This document shows positions 9,080 through 56,541 of a DNA stretch of 64,000 bases, piece by piece. The number at the start of each line of letters is the position of its first letter. The stretch's first letter is position 1. The stretch lies in IMG/VR virus record IMGVR_UViG_3300027969_000041, one strand, 5' to 3'. The notes below the pieces were generated by a model. That model was given only the letters and a program-made list of their open reading frames with translations, searched no databases and was not told the origin of the DNA. Source of the DNA: a virus. Its lineage: Duplodnaviria > Caudoviricetes. Both the position numbers and the translations under genes were made by a program.

Positions 9080-9745
9080 ATGGAACCGACCGAAACTATG
9101 AAAAGCCAACAACCTCAACAACAAAATACCCCAGAATCAAAGCCTAACGAGCTTGGATCCGTTAGAGTTCAGGGCCATATTAAAATCTTTGATCCCGAAA
9201 CTAAAGAAGTGTTTATTGATAAGCGTAATGCTATCCATTATGAAAACTTCAGTATTGCAATGGCCCGTAGTTTAAGTAACCAAGGTTATGGTACTATCGG
9301 AGAAATGTGCTTTGGTAATGGCGGGACCCGAGTTGACCAAACTGGAATTATCACATATCTTACTCCGAACGTAGTAGGAACAAGTGCTAGTTTATATAAT
9401 CAAACTTATTATAAAACAGTTGATGCTAGACAGTCGAGTGACTTAGATCCTGCTAGAAATTTCATGGAGACTCGACACGTTGCTGGAACTTCTTATTCAG
9501 ATATCTTAGTTAGTTGCTTATTAGATTTTGGTGAGCCCAGCGGCCAAAGTGCATTTGATAATGCTACAAATTCAGACGGTGATTTTGTATTTGATGAATT
9601 GGGTCTTAGATCCTACAGTCCAGACGGAGCAGGTACAGGAGACTTATTAACACATGTTATCTTCCACCCTGTTCAAAAGTCGTTAAACAGAATGATTCAG
9701 ATCGATTATACAGTGAGAGTTCAGAGCCTTACTAGTGGAGTTTAA
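9080..9745 (+). CDS. Conserved structural protein (tail-collar/baseplate-like)
   Basis: 221 aa; FDELGL and LTHVIFHPVQKSLNR..IDYTVRVQ resemble fibre-attachment/collar proteins; lies between a late promoter and the fibre genes. Confidence 0.5.
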   Translation: MEPTETMKSQQPQQQNTPESKPNELGSVRVQGHIKIFDPETKEVFIDKRNAIHYENFSIAMARSLSNQGYGTIGEMCFGNGGTRVDQTGIITYLTPNVVGTSASLYNQTYYKTVDARQSSDLDPARNFMETRHVAGTSYSDILVSCLLDFGEPSGQSAFDNATNSDGDFVFDELGLRSYSPDGAGTGDLLTHVIFHPVQKSLNRMIQIDYTVRVQSLTSGV

Positions 9746-23643: not shown

Positions 23644-24501
23644 TCAAGTACCCCACTCATTCTTAAACAACGGCACCTGCAATCGATCACTGTAGCGGAG
23701 ACCGTGTTTCATGGCCGCTAGTGCTACTGTTTTATTATTTAAAGCGTAAACACTCTCAATACCGCCCACTGGCATCAAATATACAAGACCTGTAAATCCT
23801 TCAGCACGGAATTCTTCTGTGGCCTTTAGTGCATCTTCAATATCTTGTTCTGTTGCTACCACAAATTTCAAATACACATATCCGTAATCTTGATAGTCAA
23901 CAACTACCTTAGGCTTAATTGCATCTTTCCACGGCTCGCCACTTGCCGGAAGTTTAGCACTAACGCTGAATGTAATTTCACGCATAAAATCTTTAGTGTG
24001 ATGGTGTGCCCAGGTATGTAAGTATTGTTTAAACTCTTTTGTTAAACGCATTGTGCCGTTTGTTTCAAAAGTAATTTCTTTTAATCCTTGCATACAAGGT
24101 TGCTCTAGCAAGTTCGGATACGCCTTTTGCCAACCTAGCAACGGCTCGCCACCTGTAATAACTAGATGCTCATCACGCCATGCACCAAAGGGCAATGTTT
24201 CTACAATGCTCTTAGCAAGACCATCTACGTTAATCATAGGACTTAGGTCCTTAAATGCAGGATGCCAGCTTGCATAACTATCACAACCTGTACTAACTAA
24301 CGGCAATGATTTGTATTCTGTAAATTCAACAGCACGTTCTGCAACCTTATCTGCTTCCGTGCTTAGTTCCCCACGGGGCATACCAAATCCTTGACAGGTA
24401 AAGTTACAACCAAATGTACGCAGAAACACAGAAGGGACACCCATAAAACGTCCTTCACCTTGGATGGAATAAAATAATTCTGATACTTTAATTTTGTTCA
24501 T
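23644..24501 (-). CDS. queE: 7-carboxy-7-deazaguanine synthase-like radical SAM protein
   Basis: ELFYSIQGEG...PSVFLRTFGCNFTC...GCDS, VITGGEP, FETNG, YSDRLQ; the cluster motif is Cx3Cx36C. Confidence 0.85.
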   Translation of the reverse strand: MNKIKVSELFYSIQGEGRFMGVPSVFLRTFGCNFTCQGFGMPRGELSTEADKVAERAVEFTEYKSLPLVSTGCDSYASWHPAFKDLSPMINVDGLAKSIVETLPFGAWRDEHLVITGGEPLLGWQKAYPNLLEQPCMQGLKEITFETNGTMRLTKEFKQYLHTWAHHHTKDFMREITFSVSAKLPASGEPWKDAIKPKVVVDYQDYGYVYLKFVVATEQDIEDALKATEEFRAEGFTGLVYLMPVGGIESVYALNNKTVALAAMKHGLRYSDRLQVPLFKNEWGT

Positions 24502-24766: not shown

Positions 24767-25220
24767 TTGTTTTTCTATTTTCTAAATATTTGTCGTTGTG
24801 AATCCATTTGTTGTCGACAAGGAATCCCCATTCACGCCTTTGTGGACCAGGCATGAACATTGTCCAGCAGTCTGTTCCTTCTTTAAGCTCAACACGGTGA
24901 TAGCTATTAGCAGGGCAAATACGGAAGTGCCCAGGACCACGCCAATGCCGTGTTTCACTGATCTTGGCACCTTGTGAATTAAAGTTAGGAGTCCATTCAT
25001 AATAACCGCCTTTTAAAATTAGAGTAGCGTAAGGCCATGGATGATCATGCACATCATCGGGGTCTGACTTAAGAAACTTGTGTAAAAAAACATTAAAGGG
25101 AAACTGCTTTCTGTCTTTAAGAAACAAATAATATCGTTCAAGATAAGGTTCATTATCTTGTCTATCCATTACAATGCGTTTGCGACCAAGCCGGTCAAGT
25201 ATATTTACAAACCATTTCAT
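24759..25220 (-). CDS. Cupin-fold metalloprotein
   Basis: HDHPW...ILKGGYYE...YHRVEL: His/His/Glu/His cupin ligands. Confidence 0.65.
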   Translation of the reverse strand: MKWFVNILDRLGRKRIVMDRQDNEPYLERYYLFLKDRKQFPFNVFLHKFLKSDPDDVHDHPWPYATLILKGGYYEWTPNFNSQGAKISETRHWRGPGHFRICPANSYHRVELKEGTDCWTMFMPGPQRREWGFLVDNKWIHNDKYLENRKTNG

Positions 25221-26317
25221 TTAATCATCTCCAATAACTTGTTTGCACTAAAGAAGTTTTCAGTTAGATCTCTTGTTTGTTTGCGAACTTGATATTTGAA
25301 CTGATCATAATTATTCATATATTGAATAATTTTATAACACAATGCTTGTCGAGATGACTCGTATGCTTTGTAGTTTTCGGTCCAAATACTAGGATACTTA
25401 AATGTGTCGTAGTACATTTCGCTATAAGATAAACGATCCGGTACCATCGGAATAGCATCTACAATGGCACCTTCGTAACAACTAATACCCAGAGTTTCTT
25501 GTAGATTTGCACTAAACACAATTTTACTTTCGCCTAACAAATTATGATATTCATTTTTTGTTAATTGTTGATCCTGACAAACTACAAATTCATATTGCGG
25601 CAAATGTGTAGCTAGGTCACGGAAAATTTCAACCTGTTTCTCTGGCGCTATGCGATGAGGAAACAGTATAAGATCACGTTTGGGCATATTCTTATACATA
25701 GTCAATGTATTGTCCATATACTCCATAGGCCAACCTGTTCGAACAAATCTTAGATCTTCACCTTTTAAGATTTCATCTAGATGTTCACTAAACCAAGGAT
25801 TTTCTGTAGGATAATCGTTTAACAGATTAGTATAGAACATACTAATATGAAAGTCTGTAGCAAAGTAGTTATAATCAAATGCATGGAAGAAACTCTTCTC
25901 AGCGTTTCTCACCCAAGGCTTATTGCCAACCAACCTACCTAGAAAGTCTTGAGGATCATAACTACCAGCATGCCATAAGCCGTGTGTGGTTACTGGGATG
26001 CCCAGTAACTCACTCATATATTTAAGATTGATGATGCCAGGGTGCCAAGCATCAGTAAATATAAAATGATCACCTGCATGAACGGTTCCGTCGCAAAATA
26101 GCCTACCCATCTGCTCAACCTGCCGAGCCTTGTAGATGTTTGTGCCGCCAAAATTAAGAAAGGCACCAGGAGTAGTAGCACTAGGGATATCTGTAGGGCC
26201 AGAGATAATTTGAACATTGTGTCCTGCTTTCTTAAGTAGATTAGGTACATGAGACTTCCATTGTCCCGTGTACCTAGTTTCTACGCTTTCCAAATCAATT
26301 AGGAAAACGTTTGCCAT
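25217..26317 (-). CDS. GT-B (GT4-like) glycosyltransferase
   Basis: The start is likely MANVFLID at 26317, 1 nt after the upstream stop. ILFPHRIAPEK and the E-x7-E motif ETLGISCYE are typical of retaining GT4 enzymes. Confidence 0.75.
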   Translation of the reverse strand: MANVFLIDLESVETRYTGQWKSHVPNLLKKAGHNVQIISGPTDIPSATTPGAFLNFGGTNIYKARQVEQMGRLFCDGTVHAGDHFIFTDAWHPGIINLKYMSELLGIPVTTHGLWHAGSYDPQDFLGRLVGNKPWVRNAEKSFFHAFDYNYFATDFHISMFYTNLLNDYPTENPWFSEHLDEILKGEDLRFVRTGWPMEYMDNTLTMYKNMPKRDLILFPHRIAPEKQVEIFRDLATHLPQYEFVVCQDQQLTKNEYHNLLGESKIVFSANLQETLGISCYEGAIVDAIPMVPDRLSYSEMYYDTFKYPSIWTENYKAYESSRQALCYKIIQYMNNYDQFKYQVRKQTRDLTENFFSANKLLEMIK

Positions 26318-26318
26318 T

Positions 26319-26543
26319 TTATTGTTCCTGACGCTGTGCTCGTCCTTCGCGACGGGCTTTTCGTTCAAGATACTCTTGACCACGCTGGAATGCTCGGTAA
26401 GCATCGGACCTATAAAGATCCTTTTCGTTGTATGGAAGAAGATTAAATCGGCAATGATCTAACCATGTGTCGAGGTCGTCAAAAATACGAGTGACCTCTG
26501 GTTTCATCTTAAGAGTTTTTTGAATGTAAGTTGGCTGTGCCAT
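26319..26543 (-). CDS. Hypothetical protein
   Basis: 74-aa ORF with an upstream AGGA, within the modification operon. Confidence 0.55.
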   Translation of the reverse strand: MAQPTYIQKTLKMKPEVTRIFDDLDTWLDHCRFNLLPYNEKDLYRSDAYRAFQRGQEYLERKARREGRAQRQEQ

Positions 26544-29000: not shown

Positions 29001-29582
29001 TTACTTTACTGCTATATTAAATGATATAGAAATCCTGTCTTCATCATTTAAGTTTGGTTCTACATAATGTTCTAGCCATGCAGGAAATAGTAATAATTGT
29101 CCCTCTTTAGGAGTAACAGTCCAATTGGCCGAACTAACTGCGTTATAATTATCTACAAATTGATCTTGTAAATGATATTGCAAATTGGATGCAGGATTCT
29201 TAAATAGAATGTTTCCTTTTTTATCTCCAACTGATACATAATAAGCACCTGACATAACACAATCGGTGTGTATGTGAGGTCTATTAAATCCAGACTTGGG
29301 ATTAATGTTTATCCACAAATGATTTATAAATGTTCTGGTAGAAGATTTTAATCCGCATTCAGTTTTAATAGATTCTGCTCGAGAAAGTATTTCGTTGACT
29401 AATTTTTGTATTTCTGGATTAGGCTTAATTAACGCCCCACTTTGCCAACCGTAAAAATTACTACGCACAACTCCTGGAGACGATTTTTTTACATCATATG
29501 CATACTTCTTTAATTCAGCATTGTCTATACTTGTTAGTGTATCTGAAACAACAAATGATGAAAATACATAAGACAAATTCAT
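29001..29582 (-). CDS. 2OG-Fe(II) oxygenase family protein
   Basis: WININP, HIH, SGAYYV, LFPAWLEHYV, RISISFN. Confidence 0.8.
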   Translation of the reverse strand: MNLSYVFSSFVVSDTLTSIDNAELKKYAYDVKKSSPGVVRSNFYGWQSGALIKPNPEIQKLVNEILSRAESIKTECGLKSSTRTFINHLWININPKSGFNRPHIHTDCVMSGAYYVSVGDKKGNILFKNPASNLQYHLQDQFVDNYNAVSSANWTVTPKEGQLLLFPAWLEHYVEPNLNDEDRISISFNIAVK

Positions 29583-29583
29583 G

Positions 29584-31218
29584 TTATTCTCCTAATCCAC
29601 CTTCTTCAAGTTCTCGAAGTTTATCATCATCTGGATTTTCTAAATCTACTTCTTCAGAAGTCGTTACTTCTTCAAATGCAAATAAATTTCTAAATTCATT
29701 TTGCTTAGGACCGCCCTGTAGTCGAGCACCTTCTAAACTGCGTAAGAATGGACCTGCTTGATCTATCATAGCAAATGCTTCGTCTTTAGTAGTAGTATTA
29801 AACAAGTCTTCAACTAAACTTGAGAAGTATAATATGTTACGGGGAACCCAGTCGCTATGCTCATCACTCATGTCCGAGCCTTTGACCTTCTTCCACTGTT
29901 TCCATGTCAGCCGATCTTTAACTTTGGCAATTTCGATATCCATTAGTTGTTGAGCACGTTGTACTGCAACAATATGACATTCTACATTATGACCCATCAT
30001 CAATGCATAAGCAAAACTATCCCAACTTGTTTTGTTTGGAATTTTACCTAGCTTGTTTAGTCTAGGAACTTCATGATAGTGTTCTGGATTTAAGTGATCA
30101 AATTTGACACCATTTAATTCTTTATCTGTTTTCCGATTGCCTAGATTATAATAGGCAATGTCTGTCATTGTCAATCTACGGCCGATTGACGATTCGAAGG
30201 GAAACGGAATGTCTGACCCCGATAATGATTTGTTATCTGGTGCTTTGTCCATAATAACACTCCACCTCTTGGGAGTGTGGACTGCGCTGGTGTAGACAAG
30301 TCCGTGCGCTGTTGCGATGAACGGTGAGGCGCAGTCAAAAGATATGGTAATTTCTTCATTGATATGTTTCCTGATTTGTCGTTGAATTAAAGTTAAGTAG
30401 CATGACCAATCCAGCTGAGCAGTTCCCAGAAAGTGGATCCAATTTTTGCCTTTCAGCAAACCATCTTCTCTTAATGTCATTAGACGTTTAAGAGTAATAT
30501 CCATTTTGCACATGTTAGCACCACCAAAGGCCCAACCTTCTGCTTCACGACCCGCATACTTACCTTTAGGGTCGCTAAATTCTTTTACACCTTGATACCA
30601 CTGTTCAGCAGTATCCCAGTCCCCACCTTGTAACACATTGAGCCATTTAGTTTGACCTAACCGATTCATTAGAAAGTAATCATTGTTATAACGAGTCTTA
30701 TCTAAACAATCTTCAAATGTTTTCAATCCTGTCTTAGGACTATGAATATGGTCACATGCCCATGTGGGCACGTCTAGCATCATTGACCAGTCTGCGGTTA
30801 CTTCTAACCACTCGAGAATCTTTTGACGAGTCTTTGTAGCTTCCTTGCCCTCAAAGTCTAACCAATCAAACTTAAGAACACCTTTACCAATCTGGTATCC
30901 ACCCGAGTCACCGAGAATCATAGTGTTATTACGATCTCGTTGTTGAATCATTGATTCTTGTGTTAGACTCTTTTGTAGATCTAACTGTGCATGACCTGCT
31001 GAATACAATCCGTACTTGTAAGTAAAATATCCTTGTTCTGGATTAAGGAAATTCATACCTTCAATACCTCGATCAAATCCTGCAGGGATACGATCCTTAG
31101 ATACAAACTCTTCTAGGCGTTGTTTAGCAACGTAAGTACTGTAGAAACTACTAATAGCTGGCAAATAGACAGCATAGTCTTTCTGTAATGGTGTTAGGTT
31201 AACTTGTTGATGTATCAT
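29584..31218 (-). CDS. dpdA: TGT-like DNA 7-deazaguanine transglycosylase (DpdA family)
   Basis: GDSGGYQ (catalytic Asp), MLDVP, VLQG, GWAFGG, IHFLG, ISFDCASP (second catalytic Asp); queE and QueD-like genes nearby. Confidence 0.75.
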   Translation of the reverse strand: MIHQQVNLTPLQKDYAVYLPAISSFYSTYVAKQRLEEFVSKDRIPAGFDRGIEGMNFLNPEQGYFTYKYGLYSAGHAQLDLQKSLTQESMIQQRDRNNTMILGDSGGYQIGKGVLKFDWLDFEGKEATKTRQKILEWLEVTADWSMMLDVPTWACDHIHSPKTGLKTFEDCLDKTRYNNDYFLMNRLGQTKWLNVLQGGDWDTAEQWYQGVKEFSDPKGKYAGREAEGWAFGGANMCKMDITLKRLMTLREDGLLKGKNWIHFLGTAQLDWSCYLTLIQRQIRKHINEEITISFDCASPFIATAHGLVYTSAVHTPKRWSVIMDKAPDNKSLSGSDIPFPFESSIGRRLTMTDIAYYNLGNRKTDKELNGVKFDHLNPEHYHEVPRLNKLGKIPNKTSWDSFAYALMMGHNVECHIVAVQRAQQLMDIEIAKVKDRLTWKQWKKVKGSDMSDEHSDWVPRNILYFSSLVEDLFNTTTKDEAFAMIDQAGPFLRSLEGARLQGGPKQNEFRNLFAFEEVTTSEEVDLENPDDDKLRELEEGGLGE

Positions 31219-31949
31219 GCCTGTGCTGGAATAATATATTTGTAAGTAGCAAGACCGCTGTCTAATTCAATTTGCATAGCACCGTCATTGCTAAAACCAA
31301 TTTTAGCATTGTTAGCATCTGCAATCTTCAAGATGCTCAGCACTGGCATAACAGGCCATGTCCATGCTTTAGTAATCTTACCTGTTACACCTGTGGCAAA
31401 TACAAACTCACCACCGTGACTTGCGGCATCGCCAAATGTAAAGATCAATTTGTCGCCATCTGTCTTAGCTAAGAATGTTGTGTGCTCTGTGTTAGCACCT
31501 GCTTGGAATTGGAAACGCTGTACAGAAGCAACTGTAGGCGCAACTTCAACATGCCAATTAACACCACGAAACTTGACAGTCTTCAATTTCTCATTGATGA
31601 TGTCTTGATTCATAAATCGATAGTCATTCTTAAAGTCGCCGTCTTTGTTTTCAAAGTGAAGACCGACTGGAATAGTTTCCCCGTTGCGATCACCTGTAAC
31701 AACTTCAATCTTAGCATCTTCTTGATACTCTTTACCATCAACTAGATATCGTAGTTTTTCAAGTTGTGGCATACCAAATGTACCGATCATATCGGGATGT
31801 GGATTGGTAGTCTCTGCATACATGATAACACTACGGTCATCTGCCATAGAGTCGATCAATGTTTTAGCTTCTGTGCCTGTAATTTTTACAATGTTTAAGA
31901 AGCCTAGTTTGTTGGTGTGAGCAACGATGTCTTGTAGAATGTCTTTCAT
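31215..31949 (-). CDS. DNA polymerase sliding clamp (gp45-like)
   Basis: 244-aa alpha/beta pattern immediately downstream of the B-family polymerase; a clamp loader is present at 55.3 kb. Confidence 0.65.
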   Translation of the reverse strand: MKDILQDIVAHTNKLGFLNIVKITGTEAKTLIDSMADDRSVIMYAETTNPHPDMIGTFGMPQLEKLRYLVDGKEYQEDAKIEVVTGDRNGETIPVGLHFENKDGDFKNDYRFMNQDIINEKLKTVKFRGVNWHVEVAPTVASVQRFQFQAGANTEHTTFLAKTDGDKLIFTFGDAASHGGEFVFATGVTGKITKAWTWPVMPVLSILKIADANNAKIGFSNDGAMQIELDSGLATYKYIIPAQA

Positions 31950-31966
31950 ATTAATTCCTTTGTATA

Positions 31967-31995
31967 AGTTTATTTAGATTTATGAGTAAAGTCAA
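31967..31995 (-). promoter_or_regulatory. Putative sigma70 promoter (TTGACT-N17-TAAACT) with internal TAAATA
   Basis: Read on the minus strand between the pol stop and the clamp start. Confidence 0.45.
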
Positions 31996-32002
31996 ATATA
32001 TT

Positions 32003-34672
32003 TTACTCAAACGAGAAAAGCGAACCAAACGTATTTGTTTGGGTAGTAGAGTCTAGATCCCAGTCTAGTACTCCAATAAGGTTATCAAGTTTATTATTGA
32101 TAATAGTTGCTTCCATTTCAGCATGATCAAATGGCAGATCTTGGAACCATTTAGGTAAGCGTAGTTCATCTACAGGATATGCAATACTGGTGTAACCTAA
32201 CGGATTAGCTTTCACTTTGCAGACAATAACTTTCATACCATCTACTATTTGCATAGAATACTTGTCGCCGTTCATACGACGAAGGGTATTCCAATTAATA
32301 CTAGCCCGAACGTGTCCTGGCATATTTGCCTTACCGGACTTTTCTTCTTTCTTTTGGTATTCAGCAATGTTGTTGGCACGTTTAGGACTACCCTTCTCCC
32401 ATCCAGGACGAGATTTGAACTCAGTTCTAAATTCACTGATGCGATCTAGAATTTCTGTTTCTTGTGCGTTGTTAAGTACCTTTGTTAGAATCTCTTCTAA
32501 GAATTTCTGCATAAATTCTGGTGTGTCACTACGCTTAAGATCTAAACCCATGGCCTTAATTTTACCTGGCTTGCCATCTACATCACTGCGTTTGCCTTCT
32601 TTGTCATAGTACAACACAGCATATCGTTTTTTAGTAATAAACAATCCCTTGATGGCAACAATCTCGCGGCCTGCTTTAATAACTTCACCACGACTCTTTG
32701 GACAGTGGTGTGCATCCAACATAAACTGCGGAAATGTACTATTAACTTCTTCAGCAATTGTATCATACAACTGTACTACAGTATCTTTATTCCATGTTAT
32801 CTCTTTCTTTTCAATTTCCTTACGGAGACTTGAATAAGCACTAAAATAAGCAGAGTCTGTATCACCGTAGATAATACTTTTGCCTAAGTGATCATACTCG
32901 CCCGTAACTACTTCATTGATTTTACTAGCCATGTGTCGAGCAATGCCGCGGCCTGTAAGGGTAGTGGATTGACCAATTCGATTATCAAAGAAGCGACAAC
33001 CGGCGTTAAGAATGGCACCATACAAACTATTAAGCAAAATCTTTTTAACGAGCTGTCGCTTGTCCCAATATTCTTCTTCAATTTTATTACCTGCCTTAAT
33101 TGCATCCTTAAGTTTTGCCTGCATCTCTTTACGCTCTGCGTACCACCGTTTTAGCAATCCAGGAATAATACCTTCACGTTCATGAGTAATGATTGTACCA
33201 TTAGCACTAAGCATCCACGGCTTACCACTTTCAAATATTAGTTCGTAGATTTGTGCTCCACTCATAATATCAGTTTCACCGTTTTCCCAGTCAATGATAA
33301 TGTCGTGACTGCGATCTTGAGTCATAACAAATTCATATTCGTTAGCACCAAACTTGCCCTCCCATGCAGCCGCAAAAGAGTTACCTTTGGCAATCTTTTC
33401 TTCGATTTCCGCTTTAGTATAATCTTGGCGTAACTGTCCTACAATGGTTTCTGGACCCATGTTCAATGCACGAATTACAGATGGATACAAACTGTTAATG
33501 TCCATTGATCCAATATAATCGTGCAGTCCTTTTTTAGGATAAGCAACATACGCACCAGCGGCCTGATTAACAGCGTCCTCGTCACGCTTAGGGCGACTAG
33601 GAACAATAAGTCCCCTTGCATGGGATTCGTTTACAATAGCCTGTTCAGTAACAGCGACAGCACCCATTGTAGTTTGTAGTAACACAGTATTCTCATGTGC
33701 AATAGTACTGGCAAGATCTAAGAACTTTAATTTTTTATCTAGCTTGTTTAACAATGCCGTATCTTGTCTATTATATTCAATAAACTTTCGGAAGTCATTG
33801 TTATAAAGTTGATCTAGTGTACCTTCGTAGACTGTCTTGCTCTCACCTACCTCAGTTTCTCCGATGGCATCCAGTCGATAAGTGTGTCGTTCTTCGTATG
33901 TGTACTTGCGGTACAATTCGAGACTATCCAAATGAACACGACCAACAAGGTCATAAGTAACAGCCGCTTTTCCATATTTTTCGTATTCTCTTTTCTTAGG
34001 GAATTGATCCCACAAACAAAATCTACGTGTATCTTCTTTGCTGAGAACTTTAGTAACACGATTAACAGTATAGGGGATATCAAAACCTTCGCTATTCCAC
34101 CCACTGAGTACATCGCTATCCTGAATTAAATCTAAGAACGCATCTAACATCTCCGCTTCTGTTTCGAACAACATAGTGTTAGGAAACTCTTTGACTTGTT
34201 CTTCTGCTTGCTCCATAGTCAGTGTCTTTGGCGGAACTGCAAGACATACTAGTGTATCCAACCATTGTAGGTGAACAGCAATAGCAGTGATTGGCATAAA
34301 AGCATCTTCTGGAGTGCTATAGCCACGTTCTGGATCAAAGTCCACCTCGATATCAAAAAATGCTACATTGAGTTTTGGAGCATCCTTGCCTAGATAGTTT
34401 TCTTCTAGACAACGGAATACTGGATTGATGTCACTTTCAAATAATTTGTGACTACTGTGAATTTTTTGTTCTTTGACAAACTCTTTCCAGTTACGTGCAG
34501 TAACTTTGTTAAGATTGTCTCCGTAAATGGATTTATACTTACCCCGTTGGTCTGGGTAATAGAACATATACTTTGCAGGATATTCTTGATAAAGTCTACC
34601 CTTCTTTGGATCACGTTCGATAACCTGAACAATGTCCTTTTCTCGGTCCCACCGAGCATCTACATAACTCAT
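32003..34672 (-). CDS. polB: Family B DNA polymerase (gp43-like)
   Basis: ExoI FDIE, ExoII WNSEGFD, ExoIII YNRQD, motif A DINSLYPS, motif B KILLNSLYG, motif C YGDTDS; start MSYVDA at 34672 after SD AAGGAG. Confidence 0.96.
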   Translation of the reverse strand: MSYVDARWDREKDIVQVIERDPKKGRLYQEYPAKYMFYYPDQRGKYKSIYGDNLNKVTARNWKEFVKEQKIHSSHKLFESDINPVFRCLEENYLGKDAPKLNVAFFDIEVDFDPERGYSTPEDAFMPITAIAVHLQWLDTLVCLAVPPKTLTMEQAEEQVKEFPNTMLFETEAEMLDAFLDLIQDSDVLSGWNSEGFDIPYTVNRVTKVLSKEDTRRFCLWDQFPKKREYEKYGKAAVTYDLVGRVHLDSLELYRKYTYEERHTYRLDAIGETEVGESKTVYEGTLDQLYNNDFRKFIEYNRQDTALLNKLDKKLKFLDLASTIAHENTVLLQTTMGAVAVTEQAIVNESHARGLIVPSRPKRDEDAVNQAAGAYVAYPKKGLHDYIGSMDINSLYPSVIRALNMGPETIVGQLRQDYTKAEIEEKIAKGNSFAAAWEGKFGANEYEFVMTQDRSHDIIIDWENGETDIMSGAQIYELIFESGKPWMLSANGTIITHEREGIIPGLLKRWYAERKEMQAKLKDAIKAGNKIEEEYWDKRQLVKKILLNSLYGAILNAGCRFFDNRIGQSTTLTGRGIARHMASKINEVVTGEYDHLGKSIIYGDTDSAYFSAYSSLRKEIEKKEITWNKDTVVQLYDTIAEEVNSTFPQFMLDAHHCPKSRGEVIKAGREIVAIKGLFITKKRYAVLYYDKEGKRSDVDGKPGKIKAMGLDLKRSDTPEFMQKFLEEILTKVLNNAQETEILDRISEFRTEFKSRPGWEKGSPKRANNIAEYQKKEEKSGKANMPGHVRASINWNTLRRMNGDKYSMQIVDGMKVIVCKVKANPLGYTSIAYPVDELRLPKWFQDLPFDHAEMEATIINNKLDNLIGVLDWDLDSTTQTNTFGSLFSFE

Positions 34673-34683
34673 ATTTTCTCCTT

Positions 34684-34733
34684 TGTGTAATTTGCGGCCT
34701 ACACATACCTCTATGATCATTTGTGGCTGATCA
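34684..34733 (-). promoter_or_regulatory. Tandem RNA hairpins abutting the polymerase RBS (putative translational operator)
   Basis: TGATCA-GCCACAAA-TGATCA and TGTGTAG-GCCGCAAA-TTACACA, followed directly by AAGGAG-N5-ATG. Confidence 0.6.
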
Positions 34734-34743
34734 AACCTTTCTC

Positions 34744-35034
34744 TTACATATTTATTAGTCTAATGTAGCCAATAAGATCAATAGTGACTAATAGAATATA
34801 ATTTGCTACCATACCTGTACTCTTACGTGTCCAAGCAGCCCATCCAAAGATGGCGCATTGTGTAATGAATATTGGATATAACCAAATAAACAATGGATCA
34901 GTTGCGCCGGCGGCAAGTGTAAGAGAGCAGCCGAGACTCATAGCCCATGCTGTAATTTCTAAAACAAAACGAGTAGGCCAAACTTTATAATCGGTCTTAG
35001 CCCATTCTATAATACCACTTAACAATTTATTCAT
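34744..35034 (-). CDS. Small membrane protein
   Basis: 96 aa with about three hydrophobic segments. Confidence 0.6.
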   Translation of the reverse strand: MNKLLSGIIEWAKTDYKVWPTRFVLEITAWAMSLGCSLTLAAGATDPLFIWLYPIFITQCAIFGWAAWTRKSTGMVANYILLVTIDLIGYIRLINM

Positions 35035-35659
35035 CGAGATTTTCTAACAACAAGTTAATGTTAATTACCATTCTATATTCGCTGTCTACCGGCGTCCAAT
35101 TGCAATGATAGTATGTAGAATCGAATATAAAAAGTTGTCCTTGCTTGGGTGTAACTTCCATTAATACTTTTGGCATTTCATCTAACTGTGTAAAAATATT
35201 TGTTTTTTTATCAAATAAAACAGTATTGCCATCAGCTGTGTTTACATAATATAATAGCGATATAAACTTTGAACCTTTTGGAAGAGCAACATTTTCTGGT
35301 ATTGTCATATCAGTATGAGGTGTTCTTAGACTTGATGTTTTATCTGGTGTATCAAAGTTTGCCTGTGCTCGTTCAACATAGTTAACAACATAATCTGTTC
35401 CTTCTAAGAACTTAAAAAGTATATAGTCAACTATCTTAACATTTTTATTAAGAGGCTGTCCGCCCTGAATAAAATAATAACTAAAAATATGTCGATCTGC
35501 AGGAAACACATCGTTACAGATTGCTGGATCGACTGAATGCGGCCTAAAAGACCATAGGCCTTCTGCTTTTAGTGTTTCTAAAAGAAATTCCTGATCTTCT
35601 TCATCTAAAAAATTATCGATTACAATTGGATCGAAATCTTTTTTAAGTTGAATAGGCAT
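35027..35659 (-). CDS. 2OG-Fe(II) oxygenase-like protein
   Basis: PHTD (HxD), LLYYVN, YHC (distal His), RMVININ. Confidence 0.7.
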   Translation of the reverse strand: MPIQLKKDFDPIVIDNFLDEEDQEFLLETLKAEGLWSFRPHSVDPAICNDVFPADRHIFSYYFIQGGQPLNKNVKIVDYILFKFLEGTDYVVNYVERAQANFDTPDKTSSLRTPHTDMTIPENVALPKGSKFISLLYYVNTADGNTVLFDKKTNIFTQLDEMPKVLMEVTPKQGQLFIFDSTYYHCNWTPVDSEYRMVININLLLENLDE

Positions 35660-35985: not shown

Positions 35986-36528
35986 TTATAAACGGGCGTC
36001 TATAATATTCCAATTGATAATTTTCCAATGATTTGTGAGATACCCTTTTTTGTCTGCTTGATAATCCAATGCCCAAGCATGTTCCCACCAATCGATTAAT
36101 AATATTATATCGTTCTTAATTTGATGATTGACAATAGTTTTGATCTCACCATTCTTGGCAAGATACACCCATCCACTGCCCTGTATGCCCATGGCAACTT
36201 TGGTAAATTCTTCTTTGAACTGGTCAAATGATTTGAAATGTTGCTCAATAAACTCTTTGGATGCTCCAACTGGTTCGTTTGTTTCATCTGGAATTTGTAG
36301 TTGCGGAAAATAGATACTATGTAAGTATGCACCTGCTTCGTTAAAATCTAAGTCACCTTCGCCTGCGTTGAAACGATTAACATAAGTTCTGTACAGTTTG
36401 CCATAATGATAATCTATAGCGTCTTCGCTTAGGCAAGGCTCTAGCGCATCGCGAGCATAGGATAACTTCACTTGTTCAAGTGGTTTAACCTCTTTACCCT
36501 CTACAACATATTTTATAAAATTAAACAT
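35986..36528 (-). CDS. sod: Fe/Mn superoxide dismutase family protein
   Basis: LSYARDALEP, YHYGK, LHSIYF, DWWEHAW: all four metal ligands are present; 10-aa N-terminal extension. Confidence 0.85.
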   Translation of the reverse strand: MFNFIKYVVEGKEVKPLEQVKLSYARDALEPCLSEDAIDYHYGKLYRTYVNRFNAGEGDLDFNEAGAYLHSIYFPQLQIPDETNEPVGASKEFIEQHFKSFDQFKEEFTKVAMGIQGSGWVYLAKNGEIKTIVNHQIKNDIILLIDWWEHAWALDYQADKKGYLTNHWKIINWNIIDARL

Positions 36529-45548: not shown

Positions 45549-46220
45549 TTATGCCACTATTAGGTTCTCTCTTAGTACATATTCTTCTACAACCCGAACA
45601 TTATTACCTAAAAATAGACCAAACATGGCCAGTGTTTTATCATCCTCAACATACATAAATGGTGCTTGTACATAGGCGTTTCTGCCAGATAACCATCTAC
45701 TTGTAGAGTCTGCAATAGATATACTGCTGCCATATTTTTTAGCCCATTCTAAGAACTTAGGTCTAGAATCTAATGGCATGTTTGGTCTAAAGTTTATCTT
45801 GTATCTATATTTGTCATACGGAAAATTACTACAAATAACTTTCTTTTTACCACTGGACAGCATGAATTCTAGTTCTTCGTCGCTATCTGGCCCTGTAACT
45901 GCTTTGAGCCATTTGCCCATGTCTTTAACGATAGCATCTTTTAATTCACGATCCTTGCAAAAGAAGTTAAAATGACTTCCCTCTGCACGAATCTGTAAAT
46001 CCTTGTCTAGATAAGGTTCAACTACATTTAAAAATTCAATCACACAGGCTTTTTCCTGATCGGAGGATTTAACCCATGTGTTTGTTTTCTGTGCTGCCCA
46101 ATGTCTAGTGCCTTCTGCGCCAAGCCTAATAATCATACTAGACCTAGTTAGGATACATTCAATCTTAAAAGGCCACTTACCGTAGTAGAGCTTATTGATT
46201 TTCTGCTTCAGCCGGCTCAT
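45549..46220 (-). CDS. Hypothetical protein
   Basis: 223-aa ORF overlapping the ClpA 3' end by 29 nt. Confidence 0.55.
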   Translation of the reverse strand: MSRLKQKINKLYYGKWPFKIECILTRSSMIIRLGAEGTRHWAAQKTNTWVKSSDQEKACVIEFLNVVEPYLDKDLQIRAEGSHFNFFCKDRELKDAIVKDMGKWLKAVTGPDSDEELEFMLSSGKKKVICSNFPYDKYRYKINFRPNMPLDSRPKFLEWAKKYGSSISIADSTSRWLSGRNAYVQAPFMYVEDDKTLAMFGLFLGNNVRVVEEYVLRENLIVA

Positions 46221-48471
46221 CTTTGACCTTCATAATAGGCATAATATCAATGATATTAAGTTTTAGCTCGTTATTTGCAACTGTGACTTCGACTACGCCA
46301 CCGTTAATTAACTTACCAAACAATATCTCTTTACTCAGAGGCTTTTTAATCATTTCATCAATAGTACGTTGCAGTGGGCGAGCACCCATCTTACTGTCAA
46401 ACCCTTTGCTGATCAAGTACTCAACTGCTTCTGTGTTAGGTTTAACATGGATATTCTTATCTTTGACTAATGCATTAAGTTCGTCGATAAACTTCTTAAC
46501 AATTTTAATCATTGTTTGTTGATCTAACTTGCCAAACTTGATAACACCATCTAACCGATTACGGAATTCTGGAGCAAAGAACTTATTAACAGCGTCTTTC
46601 GGATCGCTATCGCGTTCCAAACTGCCAAAGCCGACGCTGTTCTTTTCAGCATCGGCAGCACCTAAGTTACTGGTTAGAATAACAATGGCATTACGACCAT
46701 CTGCTTTCTTACCATTACTGCCGGTGATAAAACCGTTATCCATTAATTGTAATAAAATAGTCAACACATCTGGGTGTGCTTTTTCAACTTCGTCTAGTAA
46801 TAGTACACAGTTAGGGCTTTCTTGCAAGCTGGTAATCAGCTGACCAGCATTGTCGTCAAACCCTACATAGCCCGGAGGAGCACCGATGAACTTGGCAACA
46901 CTGTGTTTCTCTTGAAATTCACTCATATCAAATCGTACAAGTTTGGTATTAAGATTTGCAGCCAGTTGTTTGGCAGCTTCTGTTTTGCCTACACCCGTCG
47001 GGCCTACAAATAAGAAGCTACCAATAGGTTTGTTAGGTGATTTTAAACCTGCTTGTGCAATAAACACTTTATCCAACAATGTTTCGATGGCTTTTTCCTG
47101 ACCATAGACCTTGGCTTTCATGTTCTTTTCTAGAGTTGCTAGATTAGCACCTTCTTTATTTGTTAGTTGTTCAACTGGCAATCCAGCAATACGACTAACT
47201 TCGAACAAAATTTCTTCATGATCAACAACACCGTCTTCTTGATCTTTGACTTTAAATCTAGCACAGGCACAGTCGATTAAGTCAATTGCTTTATCGGGCA
47301 ACTTCTTATCGCTCATATACTTGATAGAATATTTTACACTGTCAATAATTGCTTGATTAGTGATCTTAACACCGTGATGTTTTTCGTAATACTTCTTAAG
47401 ACCTTTAATAATCTTAATAGCAGTTGCTTCGTTAGGCTCATCTATGGTAACACGCTGGAATCGACGCATTAATGCACGATCCTTTTCAAAGTGTTTACGA
47501 TATTCTTCCCATGTGGTACTTGCTACAACTTTAATTGTTCCTTTACCTAGAGCAGATTTAAGCATATTGGCCATATCGTTGCTACTACCGTTGGCTGCTC
47601 CAGCCCCATTCATCATGTGTGCTTCGTCTATGAACAAGATACACTTGCCTTTTTTCTCAATAGCCCCAATAACAGTTTTGAGTCTTTCTTCAAAATCACC
47701 ACGATACTTGCTGCCTGCAAGCATAGCACTAATGTCTAGGCTATAAACAGTATGGTCCTGAATAAACTTAGGCACATTACCTTCAACAATCTTACGGGCA
47801 AGCCCTTCTGCGATGGCAGTTTTACCCACACCTGGATCACCAATCATAATAGCATTGGCTTTTGTACGGCGAGCAAGTACTAGTTGAATATCTTCAATCT
47901 CTTTTTCGCGACCAATAACAGGGTCAATCTTTCTATTCTTTGCTTTAGCTGTAAGATTAGTACAGAATTGTACAATCATCTTTTCTAGTTGTGCAGTTTG
48001 TCGAGATATACCCGGATCATCTGTAACTTGTTCTTCTTTGATAATTTCTTTCTTAATAAAACTAATGAATTGATCTTTGTCAATGTTAGCTTTACGAACA
48101 AAGTAACTAGCATGACTCTTTTTTTCTGCAAACATACTAATAAAACAATCAGCAGGTTCGATAATTTGACGACCACTAAACAATACATGTGTGAACGCAC
48201 GATTTAACATGCGGTCTACTGTGCTGGTCTTTTTAGGTTTTTCAGTATCAGCGTTGACAATTTCTTTTAGTTCATTAGAAATATATTGTTCGACATCGTC
48301 TTTTAAGACCTTGACATCTGTTCCGAAAGAAGTTAGTAGTTTTACAAACGATTCGTTATTCAGCATACTGAATAAAAAATGTTCTAGTGTAACGTACTCG
48401 TGACTATTCACACTGGCTACTTGTACAGCCTTTTCAAAGATTTCTTCTAGGTCTTTATTTGGTTCTAACAT
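46192..48471 (-). CDS. clpA: ATP-dependent Clp protease ATP-binding subunit (ClpA-like)
   Basis: N-domain EYVTLEHFL, two AAA+ modules ([16 protein letters not shown]), GYVG pore loop, VGF ClpP-docking loop, no ClpB middle domain. Confidence 0.92.
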
Positions 48472-48976: not shown

Positions 48977-49795
48977 TTAAGAGAAAAGTTGTTTAATAAT
49001 ATCACGTTGATACTCGTTTAATGTTGGTACTGTTATGTTAAGTTGAATTAACATACGACCTTTAAAACGATGATCGCTAATATGTGGCATACCGTAACCA
49101 TTTGCTGCCAACATTTGTCCTGGTTGTGTTCCCGGCTTAACTTCTATTTCTAAAGTCTTGCCATCTATTGTATCTACGGTAATAGTTTTACCTATCATTG
49201 CATCGATACAGCTAACATCTATAGACCTAATTAAATCGTCACCTTGTCGAGTGAATATTGGGTGCGGATATATATGAACACTAAGATGAATATCACCTCG
49301 GGGTATATTTGGAATACTATCATCGCCCATGCTAGCTAATCGCAGAGTTGTTCCGTCTTGCACACCTGCAGGAATTTTAACATCAATTAACTGTTCTTTA
49401 CCGCTGGGTAATACAATATTTGCCATTAGGTCCTTGCCACTGAACGCTTCTTCTAAAGAGATGTCGGTTCGCATATTCAATGTTCGGTTGCGTTGTTGTC
49501 TACGCCCTCCAAACATATCTCCAAATGGTCCTCCTCCAAAAGCATTGAATATATCTTCAAAGCCCGGGGGCATTCCTCCTCCGAATTGCTGGAATCCTTG
49601 AGGCATGGGATTATCGTATTGTTGTCGTTTTTGCGGATCACTGAGTGTGCGATATGCTTCTTCAACTTCTTGAAATTTAGCTGTATCACCACCTCTATCC
49701 GGATGATGGTTTGCCGCCATCTTTCGATAGGCCCGTTTAATTTCGTCTGGTGTAGCGCCTCGATTAACGCCTAATGTTTGATAAAAGTCTGTCAT
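48977..49795 (-). CDS. dnaJ: DnaJ-family co-chaperone (no Zn finger; CbpA/type II-like)
   Basis: J-domain with HPD, G/F-rich linker, C-terminal beta domains (GDDL...MIG, GTQPG, GMP). Confidence 0.93.
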   Translation of the reverse strand: MTDFYQTLGVNRGATPDEIKRAYRKMAANHHPDRGGDTAKFQEVEEAYRTLSDPQKRQQYDNPMPQGFQQFGGGMPPGFEDIFNAFGGGPFGDMFGGRRQQRNRTLNMRTDISLEEAFSGKDLMANIVLPSGKEQLIDVKIPAGVQDGTTLRLASMGDDSIPNIPRGDIHLSVHIYPHPIFTRQGDDLIRSIDVSCIDAMIGKTITVDTIDGKTLEIEVKPGTQPGQMLAANGYGMPHISDHRFKGRMLIQLNITVPTLNEYQRDIIKQLFS

Positions 49796-55343: not shown

Positions 55344-56270
55344 TTATTGTAAGCGAGCTAATTTTACAAGTGTGGCTGCAAGATTTATCTCAGGATCTGC
55401 AATCAATGTATGATCTACTAATCCTTGTTTAATTACAAGTAATGCTGAATCTTTTTGTTCTTCGCTTTGACCAAACAAATCTAAATTCTGATACATCCAT
55501 GTATAGATGTCTTCAATCTCTTCTGGACGCACTCGACCGCACAATAATGTACGTGCTTCTTTGATCTTGCCCTTCTTAAACAATTCAACCATATCAATCT
55601 TATAATCAGCGGCAGCACTGTCTCCAGCTGTAGGAGTGGCAAGTTTTTTATCTTCTGTAATGTTTTGTTGTACTTGATTAATACATTTACGCAAATCTGG
55701 ATATGTTAGTTTGACATAAGTGTCAAGTGTATCCATATCAAAATCAATATTTTCTGTAAGCAAAATAGTTGCTACACGAGCAGTAAATTCTACTTGGTCA
55801 GTTTTCTCAACATGGTAACCTTGGCACCGACTGTGAATAGCAGGAATAATTTTGTTACGATAGTTACAAGTTAGAATGAATCTACTTGTGCTAGAGTACG
55901 TTTCCATTAATCCACGCAAGATAGCCTGCGATGCAGGGGTTAGATAATCGGCTTCGTCTAAGAGCACAACCTTAAATGGACCAAATGGAATCATTTGTAC
56001 AAAGTTTGTAATCTTATCTCGCATGTCGTCAATACGATTTTCTCTAGATGCGTTCATTTCTAACACATCGTAGTCTTCGATACCTAGTTCGTGTAACAAC
56101 ACCTTTGCCAGCGTTGTCTTACCAATACCTGCACTGCCACTAAACAACAAATGTGGAATACTGCTTTCTTTAATCCAAGCCTTGACCTGACGTTTTTGAG
56201 ACTCGTCCTTAAACACATAATCTTCAATTGTTTTAGGTCGATATTTTTCAACCCATAGTTCTTTAGCCAT
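55344..56270 (-). CDS. Clamp loader ATPase subunit (gp44/RFC-like)
   Basis: WVEKYRP, GSAGIGKT, MNAS, LLDEAD, SRC; start MAKELW at 56270. Confidence 0.92.
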   Translation of the reverse strand: MAKELWVEKYRPKTIEDYVFKDESQKRQVKAWIKESSIPHLLFSGSAGIGKTTLAKVLLHELGIEDYDVLEMNASRENRIDDMRDKITNFVQMIPFGPFKVVLLDEADYLTPASQAILRGLMETYSSTSRFILTCNYRNKIIPAIHSRCQGYHVEKTDQVEFTARVATILLTENIDFDMDTLDTYVKLTYPDLRKCINQVQQNITEDKKLATPTAGDSAAADYKIDMVELFKKGKIKEARTLLCGRVRPEEIEDIYTWMYQNLDLFGQSEEQKDSALLVIKQGLVDHTLIADPEINLAATLVKLARLQ

Positions 56271-56541
56271 TATTTGGAACCCTTGTAAAGATGTGCCAGA
56301 CACCTGATTCGTGATGTACAGTATTAAGGAATCTAAATACTCCACCTGTCATGTCAAGTGGTTCGCCAGTTCCGAAGATTCTAAATTCACGATCTTCGAC
56401 TTCTTCTTCCTCAGAGTTTACAGCCGCCCAGATGCAAAGTAGATTTCCTTGAAACTCTGCGGTAAACGGATCTGCCCCAACAGGCATTTTTATAAGTTGT
56501 GTACCTGTTACATCTAACTGATACTTGTAAATTGTTTTCAT
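56263..56541 (-). CDS. Small conserved phage protein
   Basis: Start MKTIYKY at 56541; IWA.V...REFRIFGTG motif. Confidence 0.55.
   Translation of the reverse strand: MKTIYKYQLDVTGTQLIKMPVGADPFTAEFQGNLLCIWAAVNSEEEEVEDREFRIFGTGEPLDMTGGVFRFLNTVHHESGVWHIFTRVPNNG

Follow-up and report, generated by a model that had tools for sequence, protein, structure and literature searches.

The subject of this analysis was a 64,000-nucleotide stretch of DNA from a virus of Caudoviricetes, a giant phage (IMG/VR record IMGVR_UViG_3300027969_000041), called the window below, and a block of three consecutive minus-strand genes in it, which encode a family B DNA polymerase, a 244-amino-acid (aa) protein and a 544-aa protein, in this order. 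In an earlier note on the sequence of the window, these genes had been taken for polymerase, sliding clamp and the transglycosylase DpdA, and DpdA was suggested to ride the clamp by means of a peptide shared with the polymerase. The gene order and the ATGA overlap described there were found: the 244-aa and 544-aa genes overlap by four bases (ATGA, 31215-31218). The features of the block are listed below, with the basis of each assignment; TGT denotes tRNA-guanine transglycosylase.

32003-34720, minus strand: family B DNA polymerase, RB69/T4 gp43-like, 905 aa (Pfam, PHROG and PDB sequence match)
32006-32041, minus strand: C-terminal peptide of the polymerase, QTNTFGSLFSFE, presumed clamp-binding epitope (sequence; stop codon 32003-32005)
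31215-31949, minus strand: PCNA/gp45-type sliding clamp subunit, 244 aa (predicted fold)
29584-31218, minus strand: TGT-fold DpdA-like transglycosylase, 544 aa (predicted fold, catalytic motifs and gene context)
30892-30909, minus strand: DSGGYQ motif, D104-Q109 (matches the TGT motif D102-SGG-Y106-Q)
30331-30339, minus strand: FDC motif with the invariant D295 (matches the TGT nucleophile Asp280-Cys281)
29671-29706, minus strand: KQNEFRNLFAFE, residues 505-516 of the 544-aa protein, candidate clamp-binding motif (sequence)
29587-29670, minus strand: acidic tail EVTTSEEVDLENPDDDKLRELEEGGLGE, 28 residues (517-544), core DL.NPDDD.LR.LEE (sequence and conservation)

The polymerase ends with TNTFGSLFSFE, and residues 506-516 of the 544-aa protein are QNEFRNLFAFE, followed by the 28-residue acidic tail; the claimed common pattern N-x-F-x-x-L-F-x-F-E was read directly in the sequence. 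The patterns N.F..LF.F and the looser F..LF.[FWY] were searched in the six frames of the window (open reading frames of at least 60 aa) and gave two matches each, which were the polymerase and the 544-aa protein in both cases. According to 2000 residue shuffles of 59 window proteins, 0.033 proteins were expected to carry F..LF.[FWY] in their last 45 residues, and the probability of two or more was 0.0005. The scan for further NxFxxLFxF proteins, proposed in the earlier note, was extended at the protein level to a close relative of 331.6 kb (93% complete), where the polymerase and the homologue of the 544-aa protein were again the sole credible carriers near the C-terminus. The remaining matches to the regular expression in this relative were discounted; they were a gp6-like baseplate wedge protein, three paralogues of the radical-SAM/SPASM type with Y..LFPY at their ends, and a stop-to-stop frame of 140 aa that does not look like a coding sequence. 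The motif scan at the DNA level in the genomes of three relatives yielded only noise at the level of the controls.

The polymerase was recognized by Pfam DNA_pol_B (1.5e-38), DNA_pol_B_exo1 (8.8e-19) and phrog_262 (1.3e-197), and its best PDB sequence match was RB69 gp43 (E 1.1e-63). The alignment stops at residue 850 in both proteins, each of which is left with a C-terminal tail of about 55 residues. The window peptide occupies the same position as the C-terminal 11-mer of RB69 gp43 in the co-crystal with its clamp (PMC2988020); the statement that this peptide of the polymerase is the clamp-binding element in T4/RB69 agrees with the same source. The last 59 residues of the polymerase were compared with PDB for a residue-level alignment with the RB69 gp43 tail and gave no match; their position and the literature are thus the grounds for regarding the two tails as equivalent. 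Among the 80 close loci, every complete polymerase tail recovered ended with [NT]F..LF.F[ED]. An insert, homing endonuclease or intein-like, interrupts the PolB gene in Pseudomonas phage PA5oct (L001 1605-6831), L091 (4955-9154) and L093 (360-4745), and the clamp-type tail is kept on the C-terminal fragment of these split genes.

The 244-aa protein had no match in Pfam, NCBIfam or, by sequence, PDB, and its PHROG was phrog_12062, 'unknown function'. Its AlphaFold2 (AF2) model, built from a 15-sequence alignment, consists of two beta-alpha-beta domains and reached a mean predicted local distance difference test (pLDDT) of 90.1 and a predicted template modelling score (pTM) of 0.87. In the Foldseek search of this model the top 50 PDB matches were all PCNA, with the best E of 2.5e-11, a probability of 1.0 and TM (template modelling) scores of 0.65-0.73 over about 260 columns. 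By its predicted fold, the protein is a PCNA-type sliding clamp, and the middle gene had thus been named correctly. A clamp-loader subunit is also encoded in the window, in addition to the RB69-like PolB directly upstream of the clamp gene:

55344-56345, minus strand: RFC/gp44-like clamp-loader AAA+ subunit, 333 aa (Pfam)

The loader subunit matched Pfam AAA (1.7e-14), DNA_pol3_delta2 (5.3e-10) and Rad17 (1.2e-8), and weakly Gp44_lid. Homologues of the clamp were located between or next to the polymerase and transglycosylase genes of PA5oct, Vibrio phage 2.275.O, L084, L085, L088, L091 and L093. In GenBank the PA5oct homologue EST35_0314 (L001 6912-7658; E 7e-50 with the window clamp) is annotated as 'structural protein (ESI-MS/MS)', and that of Vibrio phage 2.275.O, NVP2275O_465 (L003 4439-5158; E 3e-36), as 'hypothetical protein'. 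The label 'structural protein' is either misleading or a sign that PA5oct virions contain the clamp.

The 544-aa protein was not matched in Pfam, PHROGs, NCBIfam, PADLOC or the PDB sequence search. Its AF2 model was built from an 86-sequence family alignment and reached a pLDDT of 89.1 and a pTM of 0.89, with values above 90 in the catalytic domain. The model has a (beta/alpha)8 barrel of the TGT type: all its top Foldseek matches were TGTs (probability 1.0, E 3.5e-6). The VIA-align comparison of the model with TGT gave a Z of 18.3 and a root-mean-square deviation of 4.5 for 302 aligned residues distributed across model residues 12-464. Residues D104, S105, G106, G107, Q109 and D295 are invariant across the 86 diverse family members. 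The PDB entry titles of the TGT matches name the mutants D102N and Y106F (Z. mobilis TGT) and C281S, and from motif identity and these mutant names D104 and D295 probably correspond to D102 and D280 of Z. mobilis TGT. The family profile reached TGT entries of PDB only below the threshold (E about 0.8-0.9), with profile positions 95-218 placed onto TGT residues 99-232. PF01702 (TGT) touched just 2 of the 86 members (E 0.043). The TGT zinc motif CxCxxC is absent from the 544-aa sequence, and no invariant cysteine was found in the 86-sequence alignment, C171 being the best kept (68/86). The family members are 450-600 aa long, which is larger than TGT, and contain extra helical regions. At 50% identity the family falls into 873 clusters (E <= 1e-3); at 90% identity their number exceeds 6000.

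In the tblastn search of 50,697 phage records with the 544-aa protein (E <= 1), only jumbo-phage proteins annotated as 'hypothetical' were found and the annotated phage DpdAs were not matched. In the T4-like Campylobacter phage CP220, which encodes DpdA3, no gene was located by the family profile or by a DSGGxQ pattern at the DNA level. As judged from tblastn, the CP220 profile search and PADLOC, the 544-aa protein is outside the published DpdA subfamilies at the level of sequence, DpdA1, DpdA2 and DpdA4 not having been compared directly. The label 'DpdA' of the earlier note was therefore kept in part: the TGT fold, the catalytic motifs and the gene context speak for it, whereas the protein escapes the existing DpdA and TGT sequence models and has no zinc site. 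By predicted fold, catalytic motifs and gene context, the protein resembles the TGT/DpdA transglycosylases, and it is referred to as DpdA-like.

The gene context of the DpdA-like protein and its homologues contains genes of 7-deazaguanine synthesis. In the window, a QueE-like gene is located 5 kb downstream of the transglycosylase gene:

23644-24501, minus strand: QueE-like radical-SAM gene (7-carboxy-7-deazaguanine synthase-like), 285 aa (tblastn and Pfam)

This gene was detected by tblastn with the QueE of PA5oct (8e-23) and with the QueE-like protein of L086 (7.6e-36), and it has a weak Pfam Radical_SAM match. A QueE gene is also near the PA5oct homologue of the 544-aa protein, EST35_0316. 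The neighbours of the homologue in Vibrio phage 2.275.O are QueF, a YhhQ-like (preQ-transporter-like) gene, QueC, an amidotransferase and FolE; FolE also adjoins the transglycosylase homologues in the metagenomic contigs L084, L086 and L089. According to a preprint, the DNA of PA5oct is resistant to several restriction enzymes with G-containing sites, and QueE and QueD-like genes are noted there with no transglycosylase named (PMC12191111). A 'deazaguanine synthesis/incorporation system' of PA5oct was listed by Iyer et al. (PMC7824862). Because the 7-deazaguanine synthesis genes adjoin the homologues and the DNA of PA5oct is restriction-resistant, the 544-aa protein was read as working like DpdA.

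Several other genes surround the block. The 395-aa protein encoded at 25217-26404 (minus strand) has no Pfam match, and its gene adjoins the transglycosylase gene in other phages; its homologues include EST35_0317 of PA5oct (43% identity, 4.6e-77) and the product of a 358-aa gene of L084 (2e-67). It is likely a part of the same modification module as the transglycosylase. Two genes of the 2-oxoglutarate-Fe(II) (2OG-Fe(II)) oxygenase family, at 29001-29582 and 35027-35659 (both minus strand), flank the polymerase-clamp-transglycosylase block, and one of them begins one base past the stop codon of the transglycosylase. Genes for a Fe/Mn superoxide dismutase (35986-36528), a ClpB-like double-AAA+ chaperone (46192-48471) and a DnaJ homologue (48977-49795, minus strand) are auxiliary genes of the window unrelated to the finding.

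The shared peptide of the transglycosylase was examined for exposure and conservation. In the AF2 model pLDDT was below 50 at residues 502-524 and 526-530, which enclose the peptide. The segment is modelled as disordered, and therefore the peptide is not buried in the fold; burial was an outcome that the earlier note had named as refuting. Lack of conservation in the orthologues, another such outcome, was not observed either. In the 56 unique close tails, obtained from 80 loci at 81-93% identity, the N, F, L and F of the peptide are each about 90% or more conserved and the intervening residues are variable. The distant set consisted of 106 full-length family representatives with about 28-50% identity. 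In 34 of these, [LMIF]F was present in the last 12 residues compared with a background of 7% (p = 2.6e-14), and in a further 13 of the 106 an acidic tail comes after LF. Most carriers of the motif belong to the closer half of the distant representatives (35/53 vs 12/53). Single-protein scans of viral contigs for more distant loci gave no match with P0376 and one locus with P0285. The two motif-less members with a readable context, L087 (P0373) and L145 (P0291), have integrases and defence-type genes as neighbours, and no polymerase or clamp was found nearby. The surroundings are those of bacteria or temperate elements, and among the neighbours are integrase, GmrSD-like, Vsr, DNA methylase and HEPN genes; the motif-less branch of the family may be associated with defence or genomic islands.

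The acidic tail after the peptide forms a second conserved element. Its core residues DL.NPDDD.LR.LEE are at least 90% conserved among the close homologues, and residues 532-542 were modelled by AF2, with moderate confidence, as a short amphipathic acidic helix. Related F....DE.L..LE segments are present in PA5oct (L001 ~9500-9614) and in several representatives at 45-50% identity, and the element is missing from the polymerase and from many family members. Because the polymerase is without DL.NPDDD.LR.LEE, the transglycosylase tail is more than a copy of the end of the polymerase. The presence of this element after the motif in the window clade and PA5oct would agree with a role of the tail motif inside the enzyme, in autoinhibition, oligomerisation or folding onto the DNA-binding surface together with the acidic helix, the likeness to the polymerase being then convergent or a remnant of recombination. 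Such an internal role is quite unlikely: in many family members the LFx[FWY] peptide is the very end of the protein, with no acidic tail, and the lineage-specific match to the polymerase tail described below would not be expected from it.

The strongest result of the analysis, obtained by comparison of sequences, is the co-variation of the transglycosylase tail with the C-terminus of the cognate polymerase, a pairing that the earlier note had proposed to check in related phages. In eight deep lineages the tail of the transglycosylase resembles the end of its own polymerase in lineage-specific detail:

Window: polymerase tail TFGSLFSF, transglycosylase tail EFRNLFAF
PA5oct: polymerase tail HFDSLFGW, transglycosylase tail SFNSLFDV
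Vibrio phage 2.275.O: polymerase tail NNTDLFDW, transglycosylase tail NNNDLFGW
L084: polymerase tail LDDLFDF, transglycosylase tail VNNLFDF
L085: polymerase tail LSTFFEF, transglycosylase tail NLSLFEF
L088: polymerase tail KFESLFD, transglycosylase tail TFDGLFD
L091: polymerase tail KAMKLFNY, transglycosylase tail KAKSLFEF
L093: polymerase tail DSGLFGW, transglycosylase tail DNGLFDW

The pairing was tested exhaustively with all 40,320 partner permutations, using variable positions only and excluding the LF columns. The own-genome pairing had a score of 110 compared with 30 +/- 25 for the permutations, of which 0.03% reached it (p = 3e-4); the eight lineages are not phylogenetically independent, a dependence that is expected to make the test weaker and not to inflate its result. 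In the L084 clade, represented by ten loci, LFDF is present in both proteins in most of the loci.

The co-variation bears on two further explanations. The likeness of two short hydrophobic stretches could be due to chance and without function, considering that the motif is short and that the baseplate protein of the relative also fits the loose regular expression. Chance is strongly disfavoured by the shuffle estimate, by the island of conservation in a disordered tail, by the C-terminal enrichment in the family and by the permutation result. The peptides could also bind the beta sliding clamp of the host instead of the phage clamp, as several representatives end with xLxLF-like or xxLF peptides. 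Tails such as NLSLFEF, DPDLFG and ETGLF resemble the bacterial beta-clamp-binding motif, QL[SD]LF. This is very unlikely in a phage with genes for a PCNA-type clamp and an RFC-like loader of its own. Moreover, the two phage proteins co-vary across very different hosts (Pseudomonas, Vibrio, and those of freshwater and marine metagenomes), and because of this a partner that evolves with the phage fits better than a conserved host beta clamp.

The tail peptide was read as a clamp-binding motif because the RB69-like polymerase shares it and the clamp gene is located between the two genes; in T4 and RB69 this end of the polymerase binds in the hydrophobic patch of the clamp. Taken together, the 544-aa protein is probably a DpdA-like enzyme tethered to the phage sliding clamp for base exchange in DNA. 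Such an enzyme would most likely swap guanine in the phage DNA for 7-deazaguanine made by phage genes. About residues 1-500 form its predicted catalytic domain; the flexible tail beyond them bears N-x-F-x-x-L-F-x-F, and this motif would tether the enzyme to the clamps loaded on phage DNA. The clamp-bound transglycosylase could then scan the newly replicated duplex in one dimension for target guanines, which would permit efficient modification at or just behind the fork.

The complex of three clamp copies with transglycosylase residues 490-544 was also predicted; its score of 0.05, with a mark of 0.32, speaks neither for nor against binding. The shared peptide could instead dock both proteins on another hub of the replisome, for which the helicase-primase, the single-strand-binding protein and the clamp loader are candidates; the neutral prediction did not place the peptide on the clamp. 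Coupling to the replisome would then take place without the clamp. The co-variation implies only a common partner of both tails, and in the phage Phosso the transglycosylase gene directly adjoins the primase and DnaB-like helicase genes. Another hub is nevertheless unlikely, considering that the polymerase is RB69-like with a tail positionally equivalent to the clamp-binding 11-mer of RB69, that the clamp gene is between or next to both carriers in at least eight lineages, and that the hydrophobic-acidic xLFxF peptide is a classic signature of clamp clients (PMC2988020).

Several observations weigh against a clamp-tethered DNA transglycosylase. The clamp as the partner is suggested by analogy with T4/RB69, and the co-variation, in lineages that are not independent, points to a shared partner and not to which one. 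DNA, rather than tRNA, is the presumed substrate. The last hydrophobic position of the transglycosylase peptide varies (F, I, V, L, Y) whereas that of the polymerase stays F, and in a few close homologues the motif is degenerate (TYNKLMIV in L060/L061, NKHFLEF in L072, FTAHFDV in L047). In the window clade 28 residues follow the transglycosylase motif, which is thus internal, whereas that of the polymerase is terminal. Phosso is a loose case, as its polymerase ends with TTFNDLFTF and its transglycosylase with EGLF; the 240-aa gene upstream of the transglycosylase homologue has no detectable clamp homology, and due to this Phosso was left out of the synteny cases.

The closest parallel is found in the clamp clients of T4 and RB69. 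The T4 proteins gp43, gp33 and gp55 have interchangeable hydrophobic-acidic C-termini that bind gp45, the T4 epitope is still functional when placed internally in a fusion protein, and crystals of the RB69 clamp have been obtained with the C-terminal 11 residues of its polymerase (PMC2988020). As in those phages, one phage has a near-identical hydrophobic-acidic peptide on a flexible linker both in its polymerase and in a protein that is not a polymerase, the polymerase is RB69-like, and the predicted clamp is a two-domain ring subunit of the trimeric type. In contrast to T4/RB69, the second candidate client in the window is a putative DNA base-exchange enzyme and not a transcription factor, and the clamp is too divergent for the gp45 or PCNA sequence models. 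The motif of the window clade is, moreover, internal and followed by the conserved acidic tail, and the transglycosylase is a candidate clamp client.

Compared with the described DpdA proteins (bDpdA and DpdA1-DpdA4; PMC6884629, PMC10516641, PMC10164549), the window family likewise has the predicted TGT fold and both catalytic aspartate motifs, and is encoded in phages beside FolE, QueD, QueE, QueC and QueF genes. It differs in that the window protein is missed by Pfam TGT and PADLOC, the GenBank homologues are all 'hypothetical', CxCxxC is absent and the members have 450-600 aa. According to the main DpdA paper (PMC10516641) the base is inserted after replication, and a tether is not mentioned there; likewise, in the published DpdA papers searched, insertion was described as post-replicative and no link to the replisome was named. 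In the full-text searches on DpdA or deazaguanine transglycosylase together with the sliding clamp, no paper linking them was found.

The concept of a DNA-modifying enzyme that rides a sliding clamp behind the fork by a short peptide is shared with eukaryotic and archaeal systems. There, DNA-modifying or repair enzymes such as DNMT1, UNG2, FEN1 and ligase I are tethered to PCNA by the PCNA-interacting peptide (PIP) box. The window peptide Q-N-E-F-R-N-L-F has PIP-like spacing, Q-x-x-h-x-x-a-a. The lineage, the clamp and the chemistry, which is base exchange in the proposed case versus methylation or excision, are different, and no homology is implied. The proposed system would combine two familiar elements, the clamp client and the DpdA-like enzyme, in a new way.

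Phage 7-deazaguanine modifications of DNA defeat restriction enzymes and some CRISPR systems. The published view, insertion by DpdA after replication, does not account for how the enzyme reaches sufficient sites, which in some phages amounts to complete replacement. The candidate clamp-docking peptide offers a concrete and testable mechanism, by which the enzyme would be delivered to fresh duplex and slide along it, comparably to DNMT1 and UNG2 on PCNA. The analysis also brought out a very large family of DpdA-like enzymes missed by annotation pipelines and a divergent clamp labelled 'structural protein' or 'hypothetical' in GenBank. Pseudomonas phage PA5oct, whose DNA apparently contains modified G, provides a cultivable model. 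More broadly, we consider it a real though tentative possibility that the 7-deazaguanine transglycosylases of jumbo phages include a large clade, made up of hundreds of clusters and missed by the DpdA/TGT models, which is built into the replisome as a clamp client, and that its base exchange is processive and coupled to the fork instead of free and post-replicative. If this is true, the acidic helix conserved behind the motif would serve as a second regulatory or docking element, and fork-coupled base exchange could explain the near-complete replacement of G in some phages.

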